A program made the position numbers and the translations under genes. Below, piece after piece: positions 11,126 through 23,371 of a stretch of DNA of 64,000 bases. The notes under the pieces were generated by a model. It worked only from the letters and a program-made list of their open reading frames with translations. It ran no database searches and was not told the DNA's origin. Origin of the DNA: an uncultured delta proteobacterium (GTDB lineage: Bacteria; Desulfobacterota; Binatia; UBA9968); the NCBI GenBank assembly GCA_963745835.1, contig CAVUZH010000018.1, positions 160,001 to 224,000 on the forward strand. Reading direction: 5' to 3'. How positions within the stretch are numbered: position 1 is the stretch's first letter; each line of letters opens with the position of its first letter.

Positions 11126-12610
11126 ATGCTCACTGTCGATGAGATCGTTGTCAGGCTTGGAGACATCGTCGGCCCGAGATTGGTCTCGACAAACCCGATC
11201 GACAAAATCAACTATCAGCACACGCTCGCTTATGGCGCCTACCGGGCATTGCCGGACGTGATTGTACGGATCGAATCGGACCCGCAAGGCAATCACCCGC
11301 TGGCGAAAATCCTCAGCTTTGCCAATGAGCATAAAATTCCCATCGTCGCCAAAGGCGGCGTGGGAATGGGAATCAGTTCACCCCTTAAGGGCGGCATTCT
11401 CCTCGATATGCTCGGCATGGACAAGATCCTCGAAGTGAACCCGACGATGCAGTACATCATCGCTGAAGGCGGTGCCAGCGTATATGCCATTCACCATGCA
11501 TTGCGGCAGCACGGCCTGATGCTTCCCAACTTTGGCACTTACGGCCCCGCAGTCGTAATCGGCGCGATGATCAATAAAGGCGGTATCGGCTACGGTATGA
11601 CGCGTTATGGTTGGATCGCCGATATGGTTCTCGGTTTGGAAGTTATCCTGCCCAACGGCGAAACCATCCGGCTCGGAGCACTCGCGAATCAGGGAACCAG
11701 TTTTGGCCCATTTCAGAAATGGATTCATTTGCCGGATTTGCTCGGTCTCTTTACTCTGGCCGCGGGTTCTATGGGAATGATTAGCAAAGTATGTCTCCGC
11801 GCCATTGAGGGAAAGCGCGAGTGGTTGCATGACTACTGCTACACATTTCGCCGTGACCAGCTGCTGAACGTTCAAGAAGCGCTCATGGCGCTAGTCAAGG
11901 GTGAAGTCGTTTACGATATCCATTTTACTGACCGTTGGCAGTATCACTGGCCGATGGAAGAGGGGCTCTATCAGAAGGGCCGAATTCCGGATGATGCCTG
12001 GTTTTTTCTGAAAACGATTCTCTTAGCGCGCGATGAAGAGGAGTTAGCGTTCAAAGAAAAGAGAATGCGGCGTATCTATGAGAGCGCGGGCGGCATCGAC
12101 GTCCCGGAAATCGCTGAAAAAGCCATGGGCGCCAAGGCGCAAGAGCACGGACTGCACGGCTGGCCGGACTACCATGTCATGGGACCGGACGGTTGGTGCG
12201 GCGCGGTCGTGCGCCACAGCGGCATGTTTGCGGTGACATCCAAAATGTATCCGCTGACGTTCTTAAATGAGATGTACGATCTCGACGAGGCGGCAAAGAG
12301 GGAATGCGGTATATGGGACGCCGAACATTCGCCGCAGCACGATAGCTATGTTACGCGCGATTTGGCAATCAAAGAAGAATACTTTGTCTTCTATAATCCA
12401 TACGATGACGAAGATGTCGCCAAACTGCGAAAGTGGATGGCTTTGGTGCAAGAGTTCAGCAATCAGCGCGGAGTGGTTTGGACCGCGCCGACGCTGAGTA
12501 CCAAAGGGCCGTTGCCTTATGAAAGATTGACTAACTTATACGACCTCGTGAAAGAGATAAAACAAGTGGTAGATCCTAATAACATTTTGAACCCGGGCGC
12601 GCTTTATTGA
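11126..12610 (+). CDS. FAD-binding oxidoreductase, VAO/PCMH/GlcD family
   Basis: IPIVAKGG, GILLDM, VLGLEVILPNGE, GSMGMISK, C-terminal IKQVVDPNNILNPG. Confidence 0.88.
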   Translation: MLTVDEIVVRLGDIVGPRLVSTNPIDKINYQHTLAYGAYRALPDVIVRIESDPQGNHPLAKILSFANEHKIPIVAKGGVGMGISSPLKGGILLDMLGMDKILEVNPTMQYIIAEGGASVYAIHHALRQHGLMLPNFGTYGPAVVIGAMINKGGIGYGMTRYGWIADMVLGLEVILPNGETIRLGALANQGTSFGPFQKWIHLPDLLGLFTLAAGSMGMISKVCLRAIEGKREWLHDYCYTFRRDQLLNVQEALMALVKGEVVYDIHFTDRWQYHWPMEEGLYQKGRIPDDAWFFLKTILLARDEEELAFKEKRMRRIYESAGGIDVPEIAEKAMGAKAQEHGLHGWPDYHVMGPDGWCGAVVRHSGMFAVTSKMYPLTFLNEMYDLDEAAKRECGIWDAEHSPQHDSYVTRDLAIKEEYFVFYNPYDDEDVAKLRKWMALVQEFSNQRGVVWTAPTLSTKGPLPYERLTNLYDLVKEIKQVVDPNNILNPGALY

Positions 12611-12627
12611 TTTTAAAGGAGAACGAT

Positions 12628-13425
12628 ATGTCGGAACTGCGCATTAAAGACTATTCGGGAAGCCGATTGTCGCCGCAAGAAGCCGATGTCGTCATCGGGG
12701 ATCTAAAAAAATATTTGATGGAGCTGGCGGACCGGTGGCTGTTCAAGGGCCGGTTTCATACAGACATGGGCGCCGGCACCTTGCCGATGGAGGCGATTAA
12801 AGTATTTTGGCAAAACTGGTACGGCTTTGTCGCAGAGATCAATAATTTTCATGGTGTCGCGTACCAACGCCAGCTGCCTTTTTTCAAACGCCACCCGGAG
12901 CTACAAAAACATTTCGCCAATCACGTCGCCGATGAAATGATCCATCCGACGCCGCCGGGTCATATTCAAATCGTTCTTGAACAGGGAAGAAACTTCGGTC
13001 TGACCAATGATCAGATGATCGAATACGAGATGCTCGCCGAATGCCGCGCCTTTCTTGAATACTATCGAGGTGTGCTTTACGAGGGTACCATGGCCGAATG
13101 GTGGGCTTCTTTCTGCGTCGAAGAAGCGGTCGGACACTGGGCCAGGTTTTTCGGCGGCGCGTTGCGCAAGAACTACAACCTAGCCGAAGAAAAAATCGTC
13201 TACTTTCGCGTCCACGCTCAAGCCGATCTGGAGGAACACCAGGGCGTCATGGCGCATGCCGAGCTCGATTGGACCGTCTTAAGAAAGCTGCTCGAGGAGG
13301 GACGCGCCGAGACTCGGCCCGGATTCAACCTGGCTTATTGTCTGCGTATGGGCACCGCTTACTTCGCCTGGTTTTTTGAAGGCGTTTACCAGCACATTAA
13401 AAAGGAAGGGCTGTACAAAACCTGA
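12628..13425 (+). CDS. Heme-oxygenase-like (PqqC/CADD/TenA fold) putative diiron redox enzyme
   Basis: ADEMIHPTPPGH, CVEE, YFRVHAQADLEEH resemble the E/H diiron ligand pattern of CADD-like proteins; AAGGAG RBS before ATG 12628. Confidence 0.75.
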   Translation: MSELRIKDYSGSRLSPQEADVVIGDLKKYLMELADRWLFKGRFHTDMGAGTLPMEAIKVFWQNWYGFVAEINNFHGVAYQRQLPFFKRHPELQKHFANHVADEMIHPTPPGHIQIVLEQGRNFGLTNDQMIEYEMLAECRAFLEYYRGVLYEGTMAEWWASFCVEEAVGHWARFFGGALRKNYNLAEEKIVYFRVHAQADLEEHQGVMAHAELDWTVLRKLLEEGRAETRPGFNLAYCLRMGTAYFAWFFEGVYQHIKKEGLYKT

Positions 13426-13427
13426 TC

Positions 13428-14462
13428 ATGGCTGAATCCCCGCTAACGCAGCCCGATCTCTCACCCCGCATCTTGATGCGGGTACTGGGTGATTTTGCCA
13501 ATAGCCAAATTCTTGATGCGTCAATCGAGTACGATTTTTTTACCTTGATCGGCAAGGGTTTTCAGACGGCTGACCAAGTTGCTTCTCAGGCCGGTACTGA
13601 TCCGCGGGCGACGCGTATCGTGCTCGACAGCTTGCTGGCTCTGGCGTTGGTCGAAAAGCGTGATAGCCGTTATTACCTGACGCCGGTCAGCGAAACCTTT
13701 TTAATGCGCGGTAAGCCCTCTTACGTCGGCGATTTCCGGCATGTTGCGCTGGCTTTGTGGGACGGAATGGCTCATCTCAAAGAATCCCTTAAAACCGGAA
13801 AACCCTTCAGCCGCATGGACACCAGCGCCGCGCTTCAGGTATGGGAAAAACTAGTTCTCGGGATCATTGTTATCGCCGAACCCGCCGCCAAAGCCCTGTG
13901 CGATCTTCTTAAGATCGGCACGGAGTGGAAAGCCATCAACGTGCTCGATGTCGCCGGGGGCTCCAGTATCTTCGGCATGACGATTCTGTCCCGGGACCCC
14001 TCCGCCAAAGTCACGCAATTGGATTGGCCAAACGTCAATGCGGTCGCGCGCAAGCTCAACCAGGAGCGCGGGCTGGAAGGCAAGATTCGCTTCATCGATG
14101 GCGAGCACCACTCCGCAAGATTTGAAAGTAGCCAGTACGAGCTGGTTCTCGCCAGTAATTTCTGCCGGTTCGAATCGCCAAAGCGAAACCAGGAGCTGTT
14201 CGCCAAGGCTTACAGCGCGCTAAAACCGGGGGGATACTTCATTGTCAATGATTTCGTGCCCAATGAAGAGAGAACCGAACCGCCCTTTGCCTTACGATTT
14301 TCGGTTTACACTTTGACCCACACTCCCGAGGGGGAATGCTGGACGCTATCCCAGTATGTCGAATGGATGAAAGCGGCGGGCTTTGAAGCGATCGAGACGC
14401 ATGGCGATATCCCAGGAACTTTGCCTGGGACTACGCTGATTCTAGCGAGAAGGCAAGCATAA
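13428..14462 (+). CDS. SAM-dependent methyltransferase, O-methyltransferase (Methyltransf_2) family with dimerisation domain
   Basis: N-terminal wHTH-like dimerisation region, VLDVAGGS, ALKPGGYFIVND. Confidence 0.9.
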   Translation: MAESPLTQPDLSPRILMRVLGDFANSQILDASIEYDFFTLIGKGFQTADQVASQAGTDPRATRIVLDSLLALALVEKRDSRYYLTPVSETFLMRGKPSYVGDFRHVALALWDGMAHLKESLKTGKPFSRMDTSAALQVWEKLVLGIIVIAEPAAKALCDLLKIGTEWKAINVLDVAGGSSIFGMTILSRDPSAKVTQLDWPNVNAVARKLNQERGLEGKIRFIDGEHHSARFESSQYELVLASNFCRFESPKRNQELFAKAYSALKPGGYFIVNDFVPNEERTEPPFALRFSVYTLTHTPEGECWTLSQYVEWMKAAGFEAIETHGDIPGTLPGTTLILARRQA

Positions 14463-14676
14463 CTCGGCGTTCACCCGGACCGGCAAACGACGGTGCGCGA
14501 TGCGACGGTTTAGTGCTGTTGTCGGTTCGATCTCACGCTATAGGAGCTTCCTGTCCTGGAGCAAAGGCCTGGATTCGCTCAGGGCTAAGTGCTAGAGTTT
14601 CCGCCGTGTTAACGAGCGTCTATACGTTCAACCTCGCCGGCTGCAAGCTTCCTCGATAGCTCCCCTCGTCGGGATC

Positions 14677-16072
14677 ATGCAATATCTAGCCATCTGCGAG
14701 GACGATCTTCTGTTTCAGTTTATGCGCGACGTCGCAACTGAACACGGCGAGGTGCGCTTTTTGGTTCAAGACGAGGCCGTGGCGCGGCGGATCAAAGCGT
14801 ATGGGCGGCAAGGCTTGGCATGGCGATCTTCTTAGAGAGGAGACTTACAAGAAGGTCAAATTACATCATATCGACCAAGCGGTTATTTTTCTCCGTGAGC
14901 CTGAATCTCAGGATCGGCTGTGCAAGTTGCTGCGAACCATGGACAAGGCGCTGCCCGTGGTTTTGCTCACGAACGATAAAAACGGCAAGAAAGACGAGAA
15001 TGACCCGCTCGTTCGCCAGATTCAGCTGACCCATACCTTCCGAGAGTTTTGGGCCGCACACCTCCTAGACACGCTTAATCGGAAAAAGGTCGAAAATATC
15101 AGAGCGCTTTTCGGCGAAGAAAAATTACATATCCTCTTGCAGCACGATCCCGACCCGGACGCCATCGGCAGCGCTCTAGCGTTGCGCGAGCTCCTGGGGA
15201 GAAACCGCGCAACCACGCCGATTGTCACCTTTGGCGGCGTCACCCGACCTGAAAACATCGCCATGATCCGGTTGCTGGATATTCAGATCGATCGGATCAG
15301 CTATGATGACTTGCACAAAGACGGGGCCAAGCTTGCAATGGTTGACGTGCAACCGCCTTACTTCGACAAACCTCTGGGGAAGGTTGACTTGGTAGTCGAT
15401 CATCATCCTAAACGAGCCAACTTCAAAGCCCGTTTTACCGATCTACGAACGCCGTACGGGGCTACTTCCACAATTTTCACCGAGTACCTGCGCGCTGCCG
15501 GCATCGAGCCATCGCAGCGCCTTGCCACTGCGCTGCTCTACGGTATCAAGACCGATACGTTGTTCCTGGAAAGGGGCAGCAACCTTGCCGATCTCAGCGC
15601 TTTTACCTATCTCTATCCCTTTGCCAATAAGGCGATGATCTCGCGTATCGAGCGCCCGGCTTTGCCGCGGGAAGACCTCGAAGCGCTTGGCCGCGCGCTC
15701 AGCCGTTTGCGGCTCGACAACGGCGTGGCCGTGATCCACATGGGAGAGATTAACCGGGAGGATGTTATCCCGCAGATGGCCGAGTTTTGCCTGCAGATCG
15801 AAGGCGTCGAATGGGGCGTCGTCTCGGGTCTCGTCAATGATCGGGTAGTCATCTCCGTTCGCAATGTCGGCTATGTCAAAAGCGCCGGCGAAATCTTGAA
15901 AAGACTTTATGACGACATCGGCAGCGCTGGCGGCCACCGAGCCATGGCTAAGGCGGTTATCCCGCTTGACCGTTTCAAGGAACGATACGGCGAGGTCAGC
16001 GACCGGGTGATCCGCGACGCGATGTTGCCGATGATTGTCGAGCGCGAAGTTGAACAAATCGCGCATGGCTGA
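14677..16072 (+). CDS. DHH family phosphoesterase (NrnA-like) with N-terminal extension; one frameshift near 14795
   Basis: HDPDPDAIGS, VVDHHP, GIKTDT, SAGGH; upstream frame from ATG 14677 joins on removing one A in atcaaagcgt. Confidence 0.85.
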
Positions 16073-16493
16073 GCCTCCTTCCAGTTTCAGGGAAATCGAA
16101 CACACCGCCGACCTCGGCGTTGAAGTCACCGCCGCTACTTTTCCTGCGCTCCTCGCCGCTTCAGGAGAGGCCTTGTTTGCCTTGATCGCAGACCCTCGAG
16201 ATATTGCCCTCCGAGAAGAGATCATCGTCTCCGCAAGCGGCGACGAGCCGGAAGAGCTGCTTCACGCCTGGTTGTGCGAGTTACTTGCTCGTTTCAATAT
16301 CGAAAGTTTTGTCGGTAGGAAATGTGCGATCGATCAGATCACAGCCGATCGAGTGGATGGAACAATCTGCGGAGAGAAACTAGACCTGAACCGTCACCGA
16401 TTTCGTACCGAAATCAAAGGCGTGACCTACCATGAGTTCAGGGTTTGGCAGGAAGATGGGTTGTGGCATGCGCGGGTCATCTTCGATGTCTGA
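16065..16493 (+). CDS. Archease
   Basis: EIEHTADLG and EIKGVTYH...VIFDV signatures; start overlaps DHH stop. Confidence 0.95.
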   Translation: MAEPPSSFREIEHTADLGVEVTAATFPALLAASGEALFALIADPRDIALREEIIVSASGDEPEELLHAWLCELLARFNIESFVGRKCAIDQITADRVDGTICGEKLDLNRHRFRTEIKGVTYHEFRVWQEDGLWHARVIFDV

Positions 16494-16496
16494 CGG

Positions 16497-16610
16497 GCTG
16501 CTCACAAGACTCATAGGCTGTTGCGCTCAATCGCCTCAGGTCAACGTACTGAAACATACGTCTTCGGTCATCGATTTATCGCGCGCCTCACCCCTGAGTC
16601 TTTGAGCAGC
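16497..16610. repeat. Palindromic MITE/REP-like element, copy 1
   Basis: GCTGCTCACAAGACTCA...TGAGTCTTTGAGCAGC ends; internally similar to 32663-32792. Confidence 0.65.
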
Positions 16611-16637
16611 GGTCGTCAGATTCTCAGCAGTCGCCAG

Positions 16638-16811
16638 CTAGTGTCATGTCGCCTCAACTTCGCTGAAGAATTCTGTCCGTCGTTTGGCGTCACACGAGCG
16701 AGGGCCGCTATCCAGGCGTCTTTGAAGTTCCTAGATTCCGGGTCGCGTAGCTTCTCACACTTGCCCGGAATGACGTTGGGTTAGTCAGTGAATTTTGCGA
16801 CACGACAATAG
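16638..16811. mobile_element. Putative MITE with imperfect terminal inverted repeats, enclosing a GTCATTCCGGG...CCGGAATC-type palindrome
   Basis: CTAGTGTCATGTCGC...TTCGCTGA at left versus TCAGTGAA...GCGACACGACAATAG at right. Confidence 0.5.
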
Positions 16812-16843
16812 AGATGCAATGTTTTATTGTCTAAGCTGAACCT

Positions 16844-18295
16844 ATGGCGTCAGACCAAATCGAGCTAACTCGTATCGAGGATTATCTTTGGGAGATCCCG
16901 CGCCAAGGCGGCATGAGAGTGCCGGGCCGGATCTACGCCAATGAAAAGCTCATCACCAGCCTCAAAGAGGACAACAGCTTAAGACAGGTCATGAACGTGG
17001 CGCATCTCCCCGGGATCGTCGGTTACTCACTGGCGATGCCGGATATCCATTGGGGTTACGGTTTTCCGATCGGCGGAGTCGCCGCAGTCAGCGCCGAGGA
17101 CGGAGTGATCTCTCCGGGAGGTGTTGGCTACGATATCAACTGAGGCGTTCGCCTCGTCAGGACCAGTTTGGTCCTCGAAGATGTTAGAAATAGGCTTGAA
17201 CGAATCGTCGATAGTCTTTTCTCGCTGATTCCTGCCGGCGTCGGTTCTGAAGGCGCCATTGCCAAACTCTCCAGGCAAGATGAGAAGCGACTCCTGAATG
17301 ATGGCGAGGCCTGGGCTGTATCCCGAGGCTATGGCCGTCAAGAAGATCTCTCGGTCACCGAAGAAGGAGGAAGGCTATCGAACGCGGATGCGGATTTGCT
17401 AAGTGATCGCGCGTTAGAGCGCGGCTTGAAACAAGTCGGCACGCTCGGCTCGGGAAATCATTTTCTCGAAATAGGCCGAGTGGAAGAAATTTATTCCGCG
17501 CCAGCAGCGGCTGCGCTGGGAATCTCGCCTGATCAGCTGGTGCTCTTAATTCATACCGGCTCGCGTGGCTTGGGCTACCAAGTCTGCGAGGACTCTCTCA
17601 AGGTGATGAGTAAGGCGATGGTGAGGTACGGCATCTCCTTGCCGGATCGCCAGCTTGCGTGCGCGCCAATCGATTCGCCTGAAGGCCAACATTACCTAGC
17701 GTCTATGGCGGCCGCGGCAAACTATGCCTGGGTCAATCGACAGGTGATCATGGGCCAGGCTGAAAAGGCTTTCATGAAAGCCCTCGATGTGAGCCCGAAA
17801 GATCTGGGTTTCTCGCTCGTCTATGACGTTTGCCACAATATTGCCAAGTTTGAAGAACATGCCGTGAATGGTGCGAAACGTCGGCTCTGCGTGCATCGTA
17901 AAGGAGCGACACGTGCCTTTGCGCCGGGACATGCGCAAGTTCCCGCAGCTTACCGAGACATCGGCCAACCTGTGATCATTCCCGGAGACATGGGGCGGTA
18001 CTCCTATTTGTTGGTCGGCACCGAGACGGCCATGGAGAAAACGTTCGGTAGCACTTGTCATGGCGCTGGGCGGGTCATGAGCCGGTCGCAATCCAAGAAA
18101 CACAGCCATAATATAAATATCGACCAAGAGATGGCGCGCAGGGGAGTCGTCGCTCGCTATCAAGGCCGCGGCACCATGGCCGAGGAGATGCCGCACGCGT
18201 ACAAAGATGTTGCCGACGTCGTCGAGACGATGGATTCTGCCGGAGTCTCTAAACGGGTGGCGCGCTTCCGTCCTGTTGGAGTTATCAAAGGATAG
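16844..18295 (+). CDS. rtcB: RNA ligase RtcB, 483 aa with in-frame UGA at codon 100 (putative selenocysteine)
   Basis: ORFs 16844-17143 and 17168-18295 are in the same frame, separated only by TGA 17141-17143 in GYDIN*GVR; PDIH, GSGNHF, HTGSRG, CHN, HRKGAT, HGAGR and VIKG all intact. Confidence 0.93.
17154..17178 (+). promoter_or_regulatory. Putative bacterial SECIS element
   Basis: Stem AGGACCA/TGGTCCT (17159-65/17169-75) with GTT loop, UC bulge and TCG/CGA lower pairs; loop G lies 23 nt after the UGA. Confidence 0.7.
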
Positions 18296-18421
18296 AATTC
18301 TCCGATTATTATCTACAACTAGATCTCACTTCGAACTTTTCGCACCCGCAGAAATTCCCTTTGCTTGACAAGATCATCGGCCGGGCATAAGGGTTGAATC
18401 AAATTCACGGAGGAGGAAGTC

Positions 18422-18814
18422 ATGCCTAAGCTTCGCCATTTAGCAATTCGAACCGAAGATACTGGAAAGCTTGCCACGTTCTACATGGATGTTTTCGAAA
18501 TGCAGGTGCTACACAAAGATAAAAATGAGGGAGGCGCCATTTATCTCACCGACGGGTATTTCAATCTGGCGATTCTGCCCAATCACGAGCAACAATCGCC
18601 CAACGGCTTGTATCATTTCGGCTTTGAGGTCGAGAATGGAGAAAAGATTGTCGAGAGATTGCAGAAATTCAATCCAAACAAGCTGCCTAAGCAGCGTCCG
18701 AACGGGCGACCTTATGCCGAAACCCGCACCTCTGACATTGACGGAAATTACTTCGACATATCCGAACATGGATTCCTGACGGTTGAACCGGTCGGCGAAA
18801 AGAAGCCGAACTAA
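18422..18814 (+). CDS. VOC/glyoxalase family protein, copy 1
   Basis: LRHLAI, LTDGYFNLAIL, GLYHFGFEV, DIDGNYFDIS. Confidence 0.9.
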   Translation: MPKLRHLAIRTEDTGKLATFYMDVFEMQVLHKDKNEGGAIYLTDGYFNLAILPNHEQQSPNGLYHFGFEVENGEKIVERLQKFNPNKLPKQRPNGRPYAETRTSDIDGNYFDISEHGFLTVEPVGEKKPN

Positions 18815-18847
18815 GATCCGTTTGACGGAGACGGGGGCAGCATCTCG

Positions 18848-19855
18848 ATGGACGTCTACCATCGGAGATTTCTTTTTATCTTTGCCTTGGCAGTTAGCTT
18901 CCTGCCGGCCCAGTCCTCCGCCCAAATTAAATCCAATTTTTCTTCGAGCATCACCAGCGAAAGCATGGCCGCGGTCTGGATCGCTCGAGACCGTGGCCTG
19001 TTCAAGAAGTACGGACTGGATGTTCAATATATTCTAATGCCGCGTTCGCCGCTCGCTGTTTCCGCGCTGGTTGCAGGCGAGATCGACATGGCGGTGATCG
19101 GGCCGGGACATCTGGTAAACGCCGCCGCCGGCGGCACCGATGTGATTGGCATAGCCAATTTCGCGCAGAAACTCGATTATCGTCTCAACACGAGACCCGA
19201 GATCAAGAAAAAGGAAGAGCTTCGCGGTAAACGAATCGCTATCAGCGGCCCCGGCTCTACATCTCATTTGGTTTCGTTACTGGCGTTGCAGCACTTAGGG
19301 CTCGATCCCAATGCAGCCAAGATCGCTTTTTTTACGATTTCGGGCACTGAGATCAACCGCCGACTGGCACTTGAAAGCGGTAGTATCGACGCGACGGCGC
19401 TGAACGGCTCGGTGGGCGACCTCTACGGTCAGAAGGGCTACCCGGTGCTGTTCAATTTCAAAGGCTCGGGGGTGACGATGCCGCAAACCATGCTCGTCAC
19501 CACACGCCGATTGGCATTGACTAAACCCCAGGTCGTCGACGCATACGCCAAGACCATCGTCGAAGCGATCGCGGTGATGTTCGATCCCGCCAACAAAGAA
19601 AGCGTCACACGCACCATCGCTTCCAACTTGCGCCTATCCAATGCAAGTGACGGCGAGGAAGCTTATCAGTCAGTTATTAATTCTTATGAACGCGTGCCCT
19701 ATCCCTCACCGGAAGGAATGCACCGATTGCACGGATTGCTCACCACCATCAATCCGAAGCTGGCCGGTGTGAAGATCGACACGGTGGTGGATGACTCGTT
19801 CATCAGCAAACTCGACAGCTCAGGTTTCGTCCAAAGCGTCTCCAAGAAGCGTTAA
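18848..19855 (+). CDS. ABC substrate-binding protein, NMT1/SsuA-like
   Basis: Signal peptide, GLFKKYGLDV, ELRGKRIAISGPGS. Confidence 0.88.
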   Translation: MDVYHRRFLFIFALAVSFLPAQSSAQIKSNFSSSITSESMAAVWIARDRGLFKKYGLDVQYILMPRSPLAVSALVAGEIDMAVIGPGHLVNAAAGGTDVIGIANFAQKLDYRLNTRPEIKKKEELRGKRIAISGPGSTSHLVSLLALQHLGLDPNAAKIAFFTISGTEINRRLALESGSIDATALNGSVGDLYGQKGYPVLFNFKGSGVTMPQTMLVTTRRLALTKPQVVDAYAKTIVEAIAVMFDPANKESVTRTIASNLRLSNASDGEEAYQSVINSYERVPYPSPEGMHRLHGLLTTINPKLAGVKIDTVVDDSFISKLDSSGFVQSVSKKR

Positions 19856-19899
19856 CTGAATTTATCAAAGCCAACTCGTCATCCGTTACAAACGTTCCT

Positions 19900-21369
19900 A
19901 TGACAAGTAAGCATGTCTCGGTGGTTGTCGTCGGCGGTGGCAGCGCAGCTTTTGAGGCGGCAGTCGCCGCCAAGCAGGCCGGTGCGCCATCGGTGATCAT
20001 GTTGGAAAAGGCGCCGGAGCCGGAATTCGGCGGCAATGCTCGCTTCTCTCACACGGGCTTCCGCTTTGTCTATTCAGGCGCCGATGAGATCCGCCTGTTT
20101 TTACCCGACATCGATGAGGCAAGTTTTAGAAATCTACAATTGCCCGGGTACCGTCCCGAGCATTTCACCGCCGATCTAATGCGAGTGACCCGGGGAAGGA
20201 TCAACAAAGATTTAGCCGAAGTGCTGGTAAACGAGTCCAACGGAGCGATCCACTGGATGCGCGAGCTCGGAATTCAGTGGGAGCCGGCCGGCTCAGTCGA
20301 GATCGACGGCAAACGTTACTTCGAACCCGGTATCGTGATTCACCCCACCGGCGGAGTCGGTGGTGGCGTCAGTCAACTCAATCAATGGCGCGCTATCGCC
20401 AGCCGCATGGGAATCGAAATTTATTTTGACTCTCGGGTGCGTGAACTTCTGGGCAATGACCGGCATATCGAAGGGGTCCGCGTGTCGGATTCCAGTGAAG
20501 AATACGAGCTGCGCGCCGGCGCCGTAATTCTCTGCGCCGGCGGGTTTCAAGCCAATCCGGAAATGCGCGCGCGCTATCTGGGCGCCAACGCTGATCTGAT
20601 GAAGGTGCGCGGCAGCCGCCATGACACGGGCGAGGTGTTGCAGATGGCGCTCGGTTTAGGCTGCAAGGCTTCGGGCCACTGGCAGGGGGCGCATGCCACA
20701 CCGATCGACGCGACCTTTCCGGACGTGGAACTTAGCAACAAAGCCAATCGTTACGGCTATACGTTCGGTATCACCGTGAACTCGTTGGGACAGCGTTTCT
20801 TCGATGAAGGCGAGGCGCATCACTCCTATACCTATGCTAAAACCGGGTGGGCGATTTTGGGCGAGCCCGGCGGAGTCACTTATCAAATTTACGATCGCAA
20901 AGGCGTCGCGCTGTGCGACAAGAGCTACTATGAGTTTGCCGCTCCTGTTGAAGCACCAACCATCTCGGAGCTCGCTCCGAAAATCGGCATCGATGCCGCG
21001 ATCCTGAGACACACGGTGGACGAGTTCAATCGAGCAGTGCGCGATGAAATCCCGTTCGATGCCACCCGTGCCGACGGCCGCTGCACCGAAGGAATCACAC
21101 CGCGCAAATCCAATTGGGCCCTGCGCATCGACGAGCCGCCATTCCACGCTTATCCCGTAACCGGTGGCATCACCTTCACCTTTGGCGGCCTCGAAGTAAA
21201 TCGGCAGGCGCAGGTGCTGAACACAGGCGGGCGGCCGATACGTGGCCTGTTTGCGTCCGGGGATATTCTCGGATTATTTTTCCACAATTATCCATCCTGC
21301 ACAGGTCAGACGCGGAACGTGGTCTTTTCACGCCTGGCCGGCAGGCACGCGGCGGCGCAAGGTTTGTGA
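19900..21369 (+). CDS. FAD-dependent oxidoreductase, TcuA/flavocytochrome-c (FAD_binding_2) family, copy 1
   Basis: VVVGGGSAA, GGNARFS, AGGFQANPEMRARYLG, VRGSRHDTGE, GITFTFGGL. Confidence 0.88.
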   Translation: MTSKHVSVVVVGGGSAAFEAAVAAKQAGAPSVIMLEKAPEPEFGGNARFSHTGFRFVYSGADEIRLFLPDIDEASFRNLQLPGYRPEHFTADLMRVTRGRINKDLAEVLVNESNGAIHWMRELGIQWEPAGSVEIDGKRYFEPGIVIHPTGGVGGGVSQLNQWRAIASRMGIEIYFDSRVRELLGNDRHIEGVRVSDSSEEYELRAGAVILCAGGFQANPEMRARYLGANADLMKVRGSRHDTGEVLQMALGLGCKASGHWQGAHATPIDATFPDVELSNKANRYGYTFGITVNSLGQRFFDEGEAHHSYTYAKTGWAILGEPGGVTYQIYDRKGVALCDKSYYEFAAPVEAPTISELAPKIGIDAAILRHTVDEFNRAVRDEIPFDATRADGRCTEGITPRKSNWALRIDEPPFHAYPVTGGITFTFGGLEVNRQAQVLNTGGRPIRGLFASGDILGLFFHNYPSCTGQTRNVVFSRLAGRHAAAQGL

Positions 21370-21419
21370 TCGGGCAGGAAGCTACTGATTCGCCATAGTA
21401 CATAAGGAGGATTGGAACC

Positions 21420-21818
21420 ATGCCGAAACTGAAACATCTTGCTATTCGCACGGAAGACACTGGCAAGCTCGCAACTTTTTATATGGACGTTTTTGAAATG
21501 CAGGTGCTGCACAAGGACAAGAACGAAGGCGGCGCGATCTTTCTCACCGACGGTTACTTCAATTTGGCGATATTACCGAATCACGAGCAGCAGGCGCCGA
21601 ACGGTCTTTATCATTTTGGTTTCGAAGTTGAGAGCGGTGAAAAGATCGTCGACAGACTGAAGAAGGTAAATCCCAACAAACTGCCAAAGCCGCGGCCCAA
21701 TGGTCGGCCATACGCAGAAACTCGCGGTTCCGATCCGGACGGCAACTACTTCGACATTTCCGAGCACGGCTTTTCCAATGTCGTTCCCCTGGGGGAAAAT
21801 AAGGACAAAGCTAGTTAA
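21420..21818 (+). CDS. VOC/glyoxalase family protein, copy 2
   Basis: Near-identical to 18422-18814. Confidence 0.9.
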   Translation: MPKLKHLAIRTEDTGKLATFYMDVFEMQVLHKDKNEGGAIFLTDGYFNLAILPNHEQQAPNGLYHFGFEVESGEKIVDRLKKVNPNKLPKPRPNGRPYAETRGSDPDGNYFDISEHGFSNVVPLGENKDKAS

Positions 21819-21904
21819 AGCGCCGTTTGGTTAGCGGATCGGATTCAAACCAGTAGTCGTCTTTTCCGCTATCACTTGGTTGGACTCATCTAACCTTGGA
21901 CTGA

Positions 21905-23371
21905 ATGAGAACTGAAACCGTACCGGTCGTTGTTGTCGGCGGCGGTAGCGCCGCTTTCGAAGCCGCGGTGGCGGCAAAACAGGCGGGCGCGCCTCGAGTC
22001 GTCATGTTGGAAAAAGCGCCCGAACCCGAGTTTGGCGGCAACGCGCGTTTTTCACATACCGGCTTTCGCTGGGTATTTTCCGGCGCCGATGAAGTGCGGC
22101 GATTCTTGCCGGAACTCGATGACCAGACGTTTCAGAAGCTGCACCTGCCTGCCTATTCCGCCGAGCAGTTCACCGCCGACTTGCAGCGGGTAACCCGCGG
22201 ACGAATCAATAAGGAGCTTGCCGACGTGATGGTGCAGCAGTCCAACGCCGCAATGCATTGGATGCGCGAGCTCGGAATCAAATGGGAGATCGACAGCCAT
22301 GTTATGATCGATGGCCGCTACTATTTTGAGCCGGGCTTGGTGATCCATCCGGTCGGTGGTGTTGGCGGCGGCTTGGGCCAACTGATGCAATGGCGCGAGA
22401 TTGCGACGCGGATGGAGATCGAGATTCGCTATGAGTCTCGGGTTAAACAGTTGCTTGGCAATGACAAGCGCATGGAAGGCGTCGCGGTGTCGAATGCCAA
22501 CGAAGAATACGACATTCGCACCGGTTCTCTGATACTTTGCGCAGGCGGATTTCAAGCCAACCCTGAAATGCGCGCGCGCTATCTCGGCGCCAACGCCGAT
22601 CTGATGAAAGTGCGCGGCAGCCGCCATGACACCGGCGAGGTGCTGATGATGGCGTTAGCCTTGGGGTGCAAGGCTTCGGGACACTGGCAAGGCGCCCACG
22701 CCACGCCCATCGACTCAACTTTTCCGGACGTGGAGATCGGCAGCAAGGCCAATCGCTACGGTTATCCTTACAGCATTACGGTGAATTCATTGGGACAGCG
22801 GTTTTTCGATGAAGGCGAGGCGCGCCACTCATACACCTATGCCAAGACGGGTTGGGCGGTGCTCGGCCAGCCAGGAGCGGTGGCGTATCAGATCTACGAT
22901 CAGAAAACCATTCCATTGCTCGGCACCAGATATGAGTTTTCCACACCCATCGTGGCAAACACGATTCACGAACTGGCGGGCAAGATCGGTGTTGAACGAG
23001 CCGTGCTCGATCACACGGTAAAAGAGTTCAATAACGCTGTGCGCAAGGATATTCCGTTTGATCCGACTAAGTTGGACGGCAAATGCACCGAAGGGATTAC
23101 ACCAAAGAAATCCAATTGGGCAAGTCCTCTCGATCAGCCCCCCTACTGGGCGTATTCAATCACCGGCGGTATTACCTTCACCTTTGGCGGCCTGCAGATC
23201 AACGAGAGCGCCCAGGTGCTCAATACTTCCGGCAACCCAATCCGCGGCCTCTACGCCTCGGGTGATATCGTCGGTCTGTTCTTTCACAACTATCCATCTT
23301 GCACCGGGCAGACACGTAATGTGGTTTTTTCCCGTTTGGCGGGACGCCATGCAGCAGCCCAGGGGCTGTGA
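21905..23371 (+). CDS. FAD-dependent oxidoreductase, TcuA-like family, copy 2
   Basis: Paralogue of 19900-21369 with long identical stretches. Confidence 0.88.
   Translation: MRTETVPVVVVGGGSAAFEAAVAAKQAGAPRVVMLEKAPEPEFGGNARFSHTGFRWVFSGADEVRRFLPELDDQTFQKLHLPAYSAEQFTADLQRVTRGRINKELADVMVQQSNAAMHWMRELGIKWEIDSHVMIDGRYYFEPGLVIHPVGGVGGGLGQLMQWREIATRMEIEIRYESRVKQLLGNDKRMEGVAVSNANEEYDIRTGSLILCAGGFQANPEMRARYLGANADLMKVRGSRHDTGEVLMMALALGCKASGHWQGAHATPIDSTFPDVEIGSKANRYGYPYSITVNSLGQRFFDEGEARHSYTYAKTGWAVLGQPGAVAYQIYDQKTIPLLGTRYEFSTPIVANTIHELAGKIGVERAVLDHTVKEFNNAVRKDIPFDPTKLDGKCTEGITPKKSNWASPLDQPPYWAYSITGGITFTFGGLQINESAQVLNTSGNPIRGLYASGDIVGLFFHNYPSCTGQTRNVVFSRLAGRHAAAQGL

Follow-up and report, generated by a model that had tools for sequence, protein, structure and literature searches.

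The 64,000-nucleotide window analyzed in this study (the whole stretch from position 160,001 to 224,000 of contig CAVUZH010000018.1, assembly GCA_963745835.1, from an uncultured delta proteobacterium of the Binatia lineage) carries on its forward strand a gene for RtcB, the universal 3'-phosphate RNA ligase, whose reading frame is interrupted by a single in-frame UGA. We consider it very probable that this UGA is a genuine selenocysteine (Sec) codon in a functional RtcB. The evidence comprises the anatomy of the gene, the Sec machinery of the genome, the pairing of Sec with cysteine (Cys) at the same position among homologues, a constraint at the RNA level on a hairpin downstream of the UGA, and purifying selection acting both before and after the UGA. 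A sequence-only reading of this stretch had proposed a probable selenoprotein RNA ligase, and had suggested confirming the TGA in raw reads, searching the genome for Sec machinery and inspecting homologues for a TGA at the same codon as well as for conservation of the hairpin. The machinery, the Sec/Cys pairing, the hairpin constraint and the purifying selection described below support its proposal, as far as sequence comparison can do so.

Gene anatomy and conservation of the UGA codon

Two open reading frames (ORFs) called with translation table 11, at 16844-17143 (99 aa) and at 17168-18295 (375 aa, opening at the TTG at 17168), were found to lie in the same frame with only the TGA at 17141-17143 between them. 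Read through, they form one rtcB coding sequence (16844-18295, forward strand) of 483 codons plus stop with the UGA at codon 100. The 483-aa product matched the RtcB family PF01139 over the full length of the profile (positions 1-426 of 426, E 7e-170, 566.2 bits against a cut-off of 27) as well as solved RtcB structures at E 3e-170 to 1e-132, and its translation retains the motifs PDIH, GNHF, HTGSRG, CHN and HGAGR and the terminal KG. The ORF coordinates and the family match thus agree with the sequence-only reading, which had described one rtcB frame broken only by TGA with all other active-site motifs intact. The same profile detected a single RtcB gene in the genome.

Residue 100 aligned with the Cys of the DINCG motif, which is Cys98 of Pyrococcus horikoshii RtcB (chain 7lfq_A, whose 20 extra N-terminal residues were offset to obtain the P. 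horikoshii numbering), while D97, H206, H237, H331 and H406 aligned with Asp95, His203, His234, His329 and His404, respectively. According to PMC10630183, one manganese ion of RtcB is ligated by Cys98, His234 and His329 and the other by Asp95, Cys98 and His203, His404 is the residue to which GMP becomes attached, and the E. coli and human enzymes are inactive when alanine replaces the equivalent Cys. Since Cys98 ligates both ions, the UGA is located at the sole residue common to both metal sites; its placement at the metal-bridging Cys by the sequence-only reading agrees with both the structure alignment and this source. The set of metal ligands and guanylylation residues is complete, at position 98 only if the UGA is decoded as Sec or Cys.

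A six-frame search of 61 related genomes returned 29 orthologue rows with 73-100% identity, among which 16 contained exactly one TGA and 13 none. At the position of codon 100, the 30 loci fetched had TGA in 16 cases and TGC or TGT in 14 (two of the 16 TGA relatives, L031 and L034, come from genomes marked unpublished). Homologues with a TGA at this very codon were therefore found among close relatives and, as described below, among distant ones, the others having Cys. No alignment column besides position 100 tracked the difference between Sec and Cys forms. Relative to 11 Sec relatives, the ratio of nonsynonymous to synonymous substitution rates (dN/dS) was 0.036-0.119, for codons 1-99 and codons 101-483 alike, in the 16 of 22 comparisons in which it was computable, dS being saturated in the other six; for codons 101-483 taken separately the ratio was 0.05-0.12. 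Both halves of the gene are hence under strong purifying selection, which excludes a pseudogene. The codon itself was confirmed in independent DNA, as Logan contigs from three other DNA studies cover 17141-17143 with the TGA unchanged (X2 record 13 and X3 record 21 with 0 differences, X8 record 26 with six differences, none of them in the codon). A contig of 866 nt from an RNA library (X15 record 4), which with its 67 differences must come from a relative, also spans the TGA region; such libraries can contain DNA and it was counted as evidence neither of transcription nor of the codon present in that contig.

These data bear directly on the explanation that rtcB is a pseudogene whose TGA arose by nonsense mutation or through faulty sequencing or assembly. 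Gene callers do treat the gene as broken, the TGA forms are represented in public protein sets by nothing but the 375-aa C-terminal piece, the host genome is a bin with 9.3% contamination, and all 116 stored proteins with a recognizable motif (115 database hits and the read-through product P0001) have Cys. Opposed to this are 16 related genomes that share the TGA at this codon and at least 120 further stretches matching the TGA pattern, dN/dS values of 0.04-0.12 on both sides of the TGA with synonymous sites near saturation, the persistence of the TGA in the contigs of three other studies, and the status of the gene as the sole RtcB of the genome with an intact archease partner. A single misassembled source is likewise contradicted by the TGA orthologues, which are only 74-95% identical to each other. 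We regard this explanation as so improbable that it can be set aside.

Translation could also end at the UGA, leaving an enzyme in two pieces or a truncated C-terminal protein initiated at TTG 17168. The TTG-initiated ORF of 375 aa exists and is what the databases annotate: public gene calls of Sec forms are 375-aa C-terminal fragments starting from an internal TTG or CTG (P0106, P0108, P0110, P0111 and P0116), and four of these fragment calls are 99% identical to P0106. The annotated TTG is, on the other hand, a CTG in 10 of 21 aligned relatives (column 28) and thus not a conserved start, and it lies inside the conserved hairpin described below. The pieces would moreover be without the residue whose substitution by alanine kills E. 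coli and human RtcB (PMC10630183), and no other column distinguishes Sec from Cys forms, as a re-engineered split enzyme might show. A split or truncated enzyme is accordingly very improbable, and the 375-aa fragment calls are a systematic mis-annotation.

The model for intein-containing RtcB, NF038162 of NCBIfam, was rejected as a description of this gene, as its score of 721.5 bits stayed below the cut-off of 1150 and only the extein parts matched, with no intein. In that alignment, residues 99-483 fell on model positions 578-961, the C-terminal extein. Distant RtcB representatives of 820-1020 aa often match in two stretches, the second of which begins at query residue 98-99; together with the extein start at residue 99 this places a known intein insertion point directly before the predicted Sec residue. 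Four models of NCBIfam release 20.0 matched the product, none of them a selenoprotein-specific RtcB. In one of the related genomes, a second and more distant RtcB-like copy (G016:C686:1772-3260, 51% identity) was split into two matches, one of them with a TGA.

Selenocysteine machinery and the downstream hairpin

The host genome (G000; 7.28 Mb in 25 contigs, 97.1% complete, 9.3% contamination) encodes selA (608.6 bits), selB (394.3 bits) and selD (383.4 bits), all above curated cut-offs and consecutive on contig C22, as well as a tRNA-Sec (74.2 bits, anticodon tca), so that the search for the Sec machinery found all of its components. The selD gene itself contains one TGA, at the site AAG*AAK. 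A Sec-type gene for the alpha subunit of formate dehydrogenase (fdhA, 1212.9 bits, ...HQARL*HSSSVAGL) is located on contig C18, which is the contig of the window, and the use of Sec by the host of rtcB is therefore independent of the quality of the bin. Of the 3436 open frames with at least 300 codons in this genome, 1425 end with TGA, more than with any other stop codon, which rules out a reassigned genetic code.

The fdhA gene (G000:C18:417030-419831, locus L171) has a second in-frame TGA (...KTFKTNQ*EGRVVN...) 46 codons before the canonical Sec codon, which may represent another Sec codon, a lesion or an error.

In models of bacterial Sec insertion sequences (SECIS), the loop falls about 16-37 nt past the UGA, and a G and a U of the loop contact SelB. 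Downstream of the rtcB UGA, a SECIS-type hairpin was found on the forward strand at 17157-17178, consisting of a 5' arm (17157-17165), a GUU loop (17166-17168) and a 3' arm (17169-17178) in which C17176 is bulged. Its core stem of 7 bp (17159-17165 with 17169-17175) is extended by the pairs U17157-A17178 and C17158-G17177. The hairpin starts 14 nt 3' of the UGA, its loop G lies 23 nt past the A of the UGA, and the whole element is embedded in rtcB codons 105-112. The sequence-only reading had described this hairpin and the distance of 23 nt to the loop G, both of which were borne out, and a bulged U, which was mistaken, the bulge of the fold being C17176. A second small hairpin at 17141-17156, which includes the UGA, was rejected as part of the signal because columns 6 and 15 of the relatives break its pairs. 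An Rfam scan of 12000-22000 at E values up to 1 gave no match, and Rfam appears to be without a model able to detect the hairpin.

Conservation of the element was apparent at several levels. In the alignment of the window's type of hairpin (A1, 21 distinct sequences), the 8-pair stem was paired in 95.2% of cells, compared with 27-60% when the 3' partners were slid, and compensatory change was seen at two pairs (20-34 as AU, GU or GC and 21-33 as GC or AU). Third codon positions told the same story: among 15 full-length Sec forms, 6.6% of them are invariant gene-wide, whereas none of those in codons 106-110 varies. Where a degenerate amino acid is invariant in these 15 forms, the third base is retained in only 9 of 264 codons, and the best 7-codon window for third-position invariance in the whole gene falls on the hairpin codons. 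Pairing kept in relatives, compensatory changes and frozen synonymous sites thus all bear out the conservation for which the hairpin was to be checked.

The fate of the hairpin in Cys forms was followed on a 43-sequence tree (maximum likelihood, quick search, unrooted). Cys forms of the window's group are nested among Sec forms on this tree, and those sister to Sec forms kept 8 of 8 stem pairs, as opposed to 2-7 of 8 in an older all-Cys sub-clade. This loss of pairs may represent the decay of a SECIS that had become useless after Sec was replaced by Cys, which we infer to be the direction of change. Other Sec genes of the genome offer further points of comparison, as the selD hairpin has an identical A-GUU-U apical loop 33 nt past the selD UGA, and fdhA can form a CC-GGUCU-GG hairpin whose GGUCU loop is also present in several rtcB relatives.

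Within the hairpin, contigs of run X2 differ at 17174 (C or T, in the 3' arm), which changes a G-C pair to G-U and retains the pairing. Contigs of three independent runs stop at 17173, beside this site, and the C/T difference looks like strain variation.

The mechanism we propose follows that of known bacterial selenoproteins. The hairpin at 17157-17178 would act as a bacterial SECIS and recruit SelB-GTP-Sec-tRNA(Sec) to the ribosome, and the UGA would be decoded as Sec instead of terminating translation; from the features above we infer both the binding of SelB by the hairpin and the insertion of selenium at residue 100. In the resulting enzyme a selenolate would replace the Cys thiolate that bridges two Mn(II) ions at the site of GTP binding and guanylylation. 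Together with archease, His406 would then be guanylylated, the GMP moved to the 3'-phosphate of the RNA and the end sealed to a 5'-OH.

Distribution, interchange with cysteine and genomic surroundings

A degenerate DNA pattern for GYDIN-TGA-GVR was scanned on contigs of one genome per species, which yielded at least 120 further TGA-bearing genome stretches. The analyses of flanks, hairpins and archease genes were carried out on 80 listed stretches and the 16 relatives, 96 loci altogether, and in all of these the RtcB frame is, apart from the TGA, uninterrupted in both directions as far as the contig extends. Record titles among the stretches listed name Thermodesulfobacteriota/Deltaproteobacteria, Acidobacteriota (including Vicinamibacterales), Nitrospirota (Thermodesulfovibrionia and Candidatus Magnetobacterium), Candidatus Binatia and a few others. 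The arrangement of UGA and hairpin is found in many bacteria of soil and sediment. Among five distant-lineage genomes with a TGA-containing rtcB, selB was above the cut-off in four. In an even sample of 401 genomes from the phylum of the window, 326 had an RtcB match with an E value of 1e-100 or lower; 33 of the 150 match rows listed had one TGA, counted without regard to codon position.

The 93 distinct flanks fell into three hairpin designs. The window's type (21 sequences, those of alignment A1 with its 95.2% pairing and two compensatory pairs) has a short stem capped by GUU, GUC or GGUCU, with the loop 21-22 nt past the UGA. The commonest design, with 52 sequences, is a bulged short stem whose loop, GGUC or GGUU, lies 21 nt past the UGA; it was paired in 86.3% of cells versus 26-47% with slid partners. 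Records labelled as Nitrospirota (20 sequences) share a 16-bp stem and a purine-rich loop of 9 nt that begins 27 nt past the UGA; this long-stem design was paired in 85.6% of cells, contained six compensatory pairs and had a score reached by 0 of 500 shuffles.

Sec and Cys forms have interchanged repeatedly. An unrooted FastTree of 107 sequences, in which several long branches meet and which includes 20 Cys forms from the phylum sample, required at least 13 interchanges between Sec and Cys, and well-supported branches leave no alternative to 8 of these. Some Cys forms adjoin Sec forms on this tree with the hairpin sequence still there. A single origin of Sec-RtcB had been suggested by a first FastTree with coarse Cys representatives, in which all 64 Sec forms grouped together (5 changes), and was abandoned when addition of the 20 Cys forms raised the minimum number of changes to 13.

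Such frequent interchange, as well as the fact that Cys at this site works in all characterized RtcBs, would also be compatible with a UGA that is read through without Sec, either by a near-cognate Trp or Cys tRNA or, under selenium shortage, by tRNA-Sec charged with Cys. Such a read-through is opposed by the complete Sec machinery and by a SECIS-type hairpin that is conserved and suitably spaced from the UGA. It is also opposed by the predominance of TGA among the terminators of long frames, which shows that TGA is not a reassigned sense codon; Trp in particular is unable to ligate metals. Insertion of an amino acid other than Sec is therefore very unlikely, with a small share of the probability left to it.

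Several observations weigh against decoding of the UGA as Sec and have to be set beside the evidence in its favor. The folding energy of the hairpin is unexceptional (z = -1.5, with 17 of 200 shuffles equally or more stable), so that its significance rests on conservation. This conservation could in part reflect the encoded peptide or recent ancestry, several Cys forms retain the hairpin sequence, and the commonest of the three designs is conserved without compensatory change. The co-occurrence of selB with TGA-containing rtcB is uninformative because selB is nearly universal in the order: it was detected in 55 of 61 genomes, and in 14 of 16 TGA genomes compared with 10 of 13 Cys-only genomes. 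The search did not find selB in the TGA genomes G001 (84% complete) and G007 (96% complete), nor above the cut-off in the distant genome G463. Finally, spontaneous cleavage of a peptide bond near the site is reported for an artificial P. horikoshii RtcB carrying Sec98 (PMC4150793), and Sec at this position is consequently not automatically tolerated.

Upstream of rtcB and on the same strand, an archease gene encoding the activator of RtcB (16035-16493; PF01951, E 6e-36) ends 350 nt 5' of rtcB. It is preceded by a gene of the DHH/DHHA1 phosphoesterase family (14801-16072, forward strand), whose matches to PF01368 and PF02272 are both barely over the cut-offs and which overlaps the TTG-initiated archease ORF by 38 nt (16035-16072). 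The two may be co-transcribed, and the real start of archease may lie further downstream than this TTG; whether the DHH/DHHA1 gene is part of the RtcB system is uncertain. In 71 of the 96 TGA-containing loci, a same-strand archease homologue was present no more than 1 kb upstream. Another 20 were without any archease match, and the upstream flank reached 700 nt or more in only 7 of these. The protein P0070 of a close relative (583 aa, 80% identity) combines PF01951 and PF01139 in one call, either as a fusion or as a merged gene call. A scan of 14500-18600 for promoters and terminators gave counts not above those of shuffles. The intergenic region between archease and rtcB contains a 32-nt dispersed repeat (16520-16551) with 12 copies in the genome at up to 5 mismatches. 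Short contigs in four sequencing runs match only this segment and are unlike the sequence on both sides of it. The repeat could be an element resembling repetitive extragenic palindromes (REP) or miniature inverted-repeat transposable elements (MITE).

Relation to known systems and significance

The enzyme shares its metal ligands, its guanylylated His and its archease partner with canonical Cys-type RtcBs (P. horikoshii PH1602, T. thermophilus TTHA1785, E. coli RtcB and human RTCB), the difference being that these have a Cys codon for the ligand of both manganese ions where the gene described here has a UGA followed by a SECIS-type hairpin in codons 105-112. The hairpin in turn resembles bacterial SECIS of the fdhF/selD type, which are located in the coding sequence shortly 3' of the UGA and have a small loop starting with G followed by U, although the Sec-rtcB genes use three designs rather than one.

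Mn(II) is a hard metal, for which a selenolate is a chemically unusual ligand. Sec is also a direct metal ligand, with Cys orthologues in existence, in the alpha subunit of formate dehydrogenase and in [NiFeSe] hydrogenases (PMC13188914), but these are redox enzymes with Mo/W or Ni, whereas RtcB contains Mn(II) and ligates RNA by GTP-dependent nucleotidyl transfer. The sequence-only reading had called a non-redox selenoprotein unusual, a fair description that does not hold absolutely, since the table in PMC13188914 includes other families that are not oxidoreductases, among them SelD, methyltransferases and an amidotransferase.

Sec at the identical active-site position has been described in the engineered P. 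horikoshii U98 enzyme (Haruna et al., Nucleic Acids Res 2014, PMC4150793), which has the same flanking residues, DIN-U-G, as the natural forms. The engineered enzyme was made from a UAG codon with an EF-Tu-based system, while the natural genes use UGA with a SECIS and are under purifying selection; natural Sec-RtcBs presumably give a stable enzyme. Apart from this engineered protein, no natural Sec-RtcB was found described in the open-licence literature of PMC or bioRxiv. Table 1 of a review from May 2026 (PMC13188914), which covers 119 prokaryotic selenoprotein families, has no entry for RtcB or a ligase, and the main text of the deep-Sep and BSepDB papers (PMC12013277 and PMC13326102), in the parts available to us, contains neither 'ligase' nor 'splicing'. 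The sequence-only reading had left open whether Sec-RtcB had been catalogued before; this literature and the review table fit an uncatalogued protein. The enzyme and the recoding mechanism are each textbook knowledge, and it is their combination that appears to have remained uncatalogued in spite of its wide distribution.

The active-site Cys is the known weak point of RtcB. It was found oxidized in aerobically purified enzyme (PMC10630183), and human RTCB undergoes metal-induced oxidative inactivation from which PYROXD1 and thioredoxin protect it (PMC12263435, PMC10653391). For formate dehydrogenase and [NiFeSe] hydrogenase, Sec has been suggested to guard the site from over-oxidation (PMC13188914). 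By analogy, Sec might be favored in RtcB because it protects an oxidation-prone metal-ligand residue, a speculation to which a changed metal preference is the alternative. Taken as a whole, the wider picture, in which Sec-RtcB forms a widespread selenoprotein family missed by the catalogues, with selenium bridging the di-manganese center of a non-redox RNA ligase, oxidation resistance as the likely benefit, many interconversions with Cys and at least three SECIS designs, is put forward as a tentative proposal about which we incline somewhat to doubt.

Because the genes are annotated as 375-aa fragments, counts of RtcB come out too low, and selenoproteomes too small, in Thermodesulfobacteriota, Acidobacteriota, Nitrospirota and Binatia-type genomes, and the annotation needs to be corrected. 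If the proposal is true, soil and sediment bacteria would have met the oxidation problem of RtcB by recoding a single codon, and their capacity for RNA repair would be tied to the supply of selenium. A natural Sec-RtcB would provide a ready comparison of sulfur and selenium at a di-metal, non-redox site and open the way to tests of whether selenium confers resistance to oxidation or shifts the metal preference. The difference between the conserved natural forms and the disintegrating engineered U98 enzyme likewise calls for an explanation. Sec-RtcB would thus represent not a new principle but a widespread and experimentally tractable case that bears on the oxidative weakness of RtcB.

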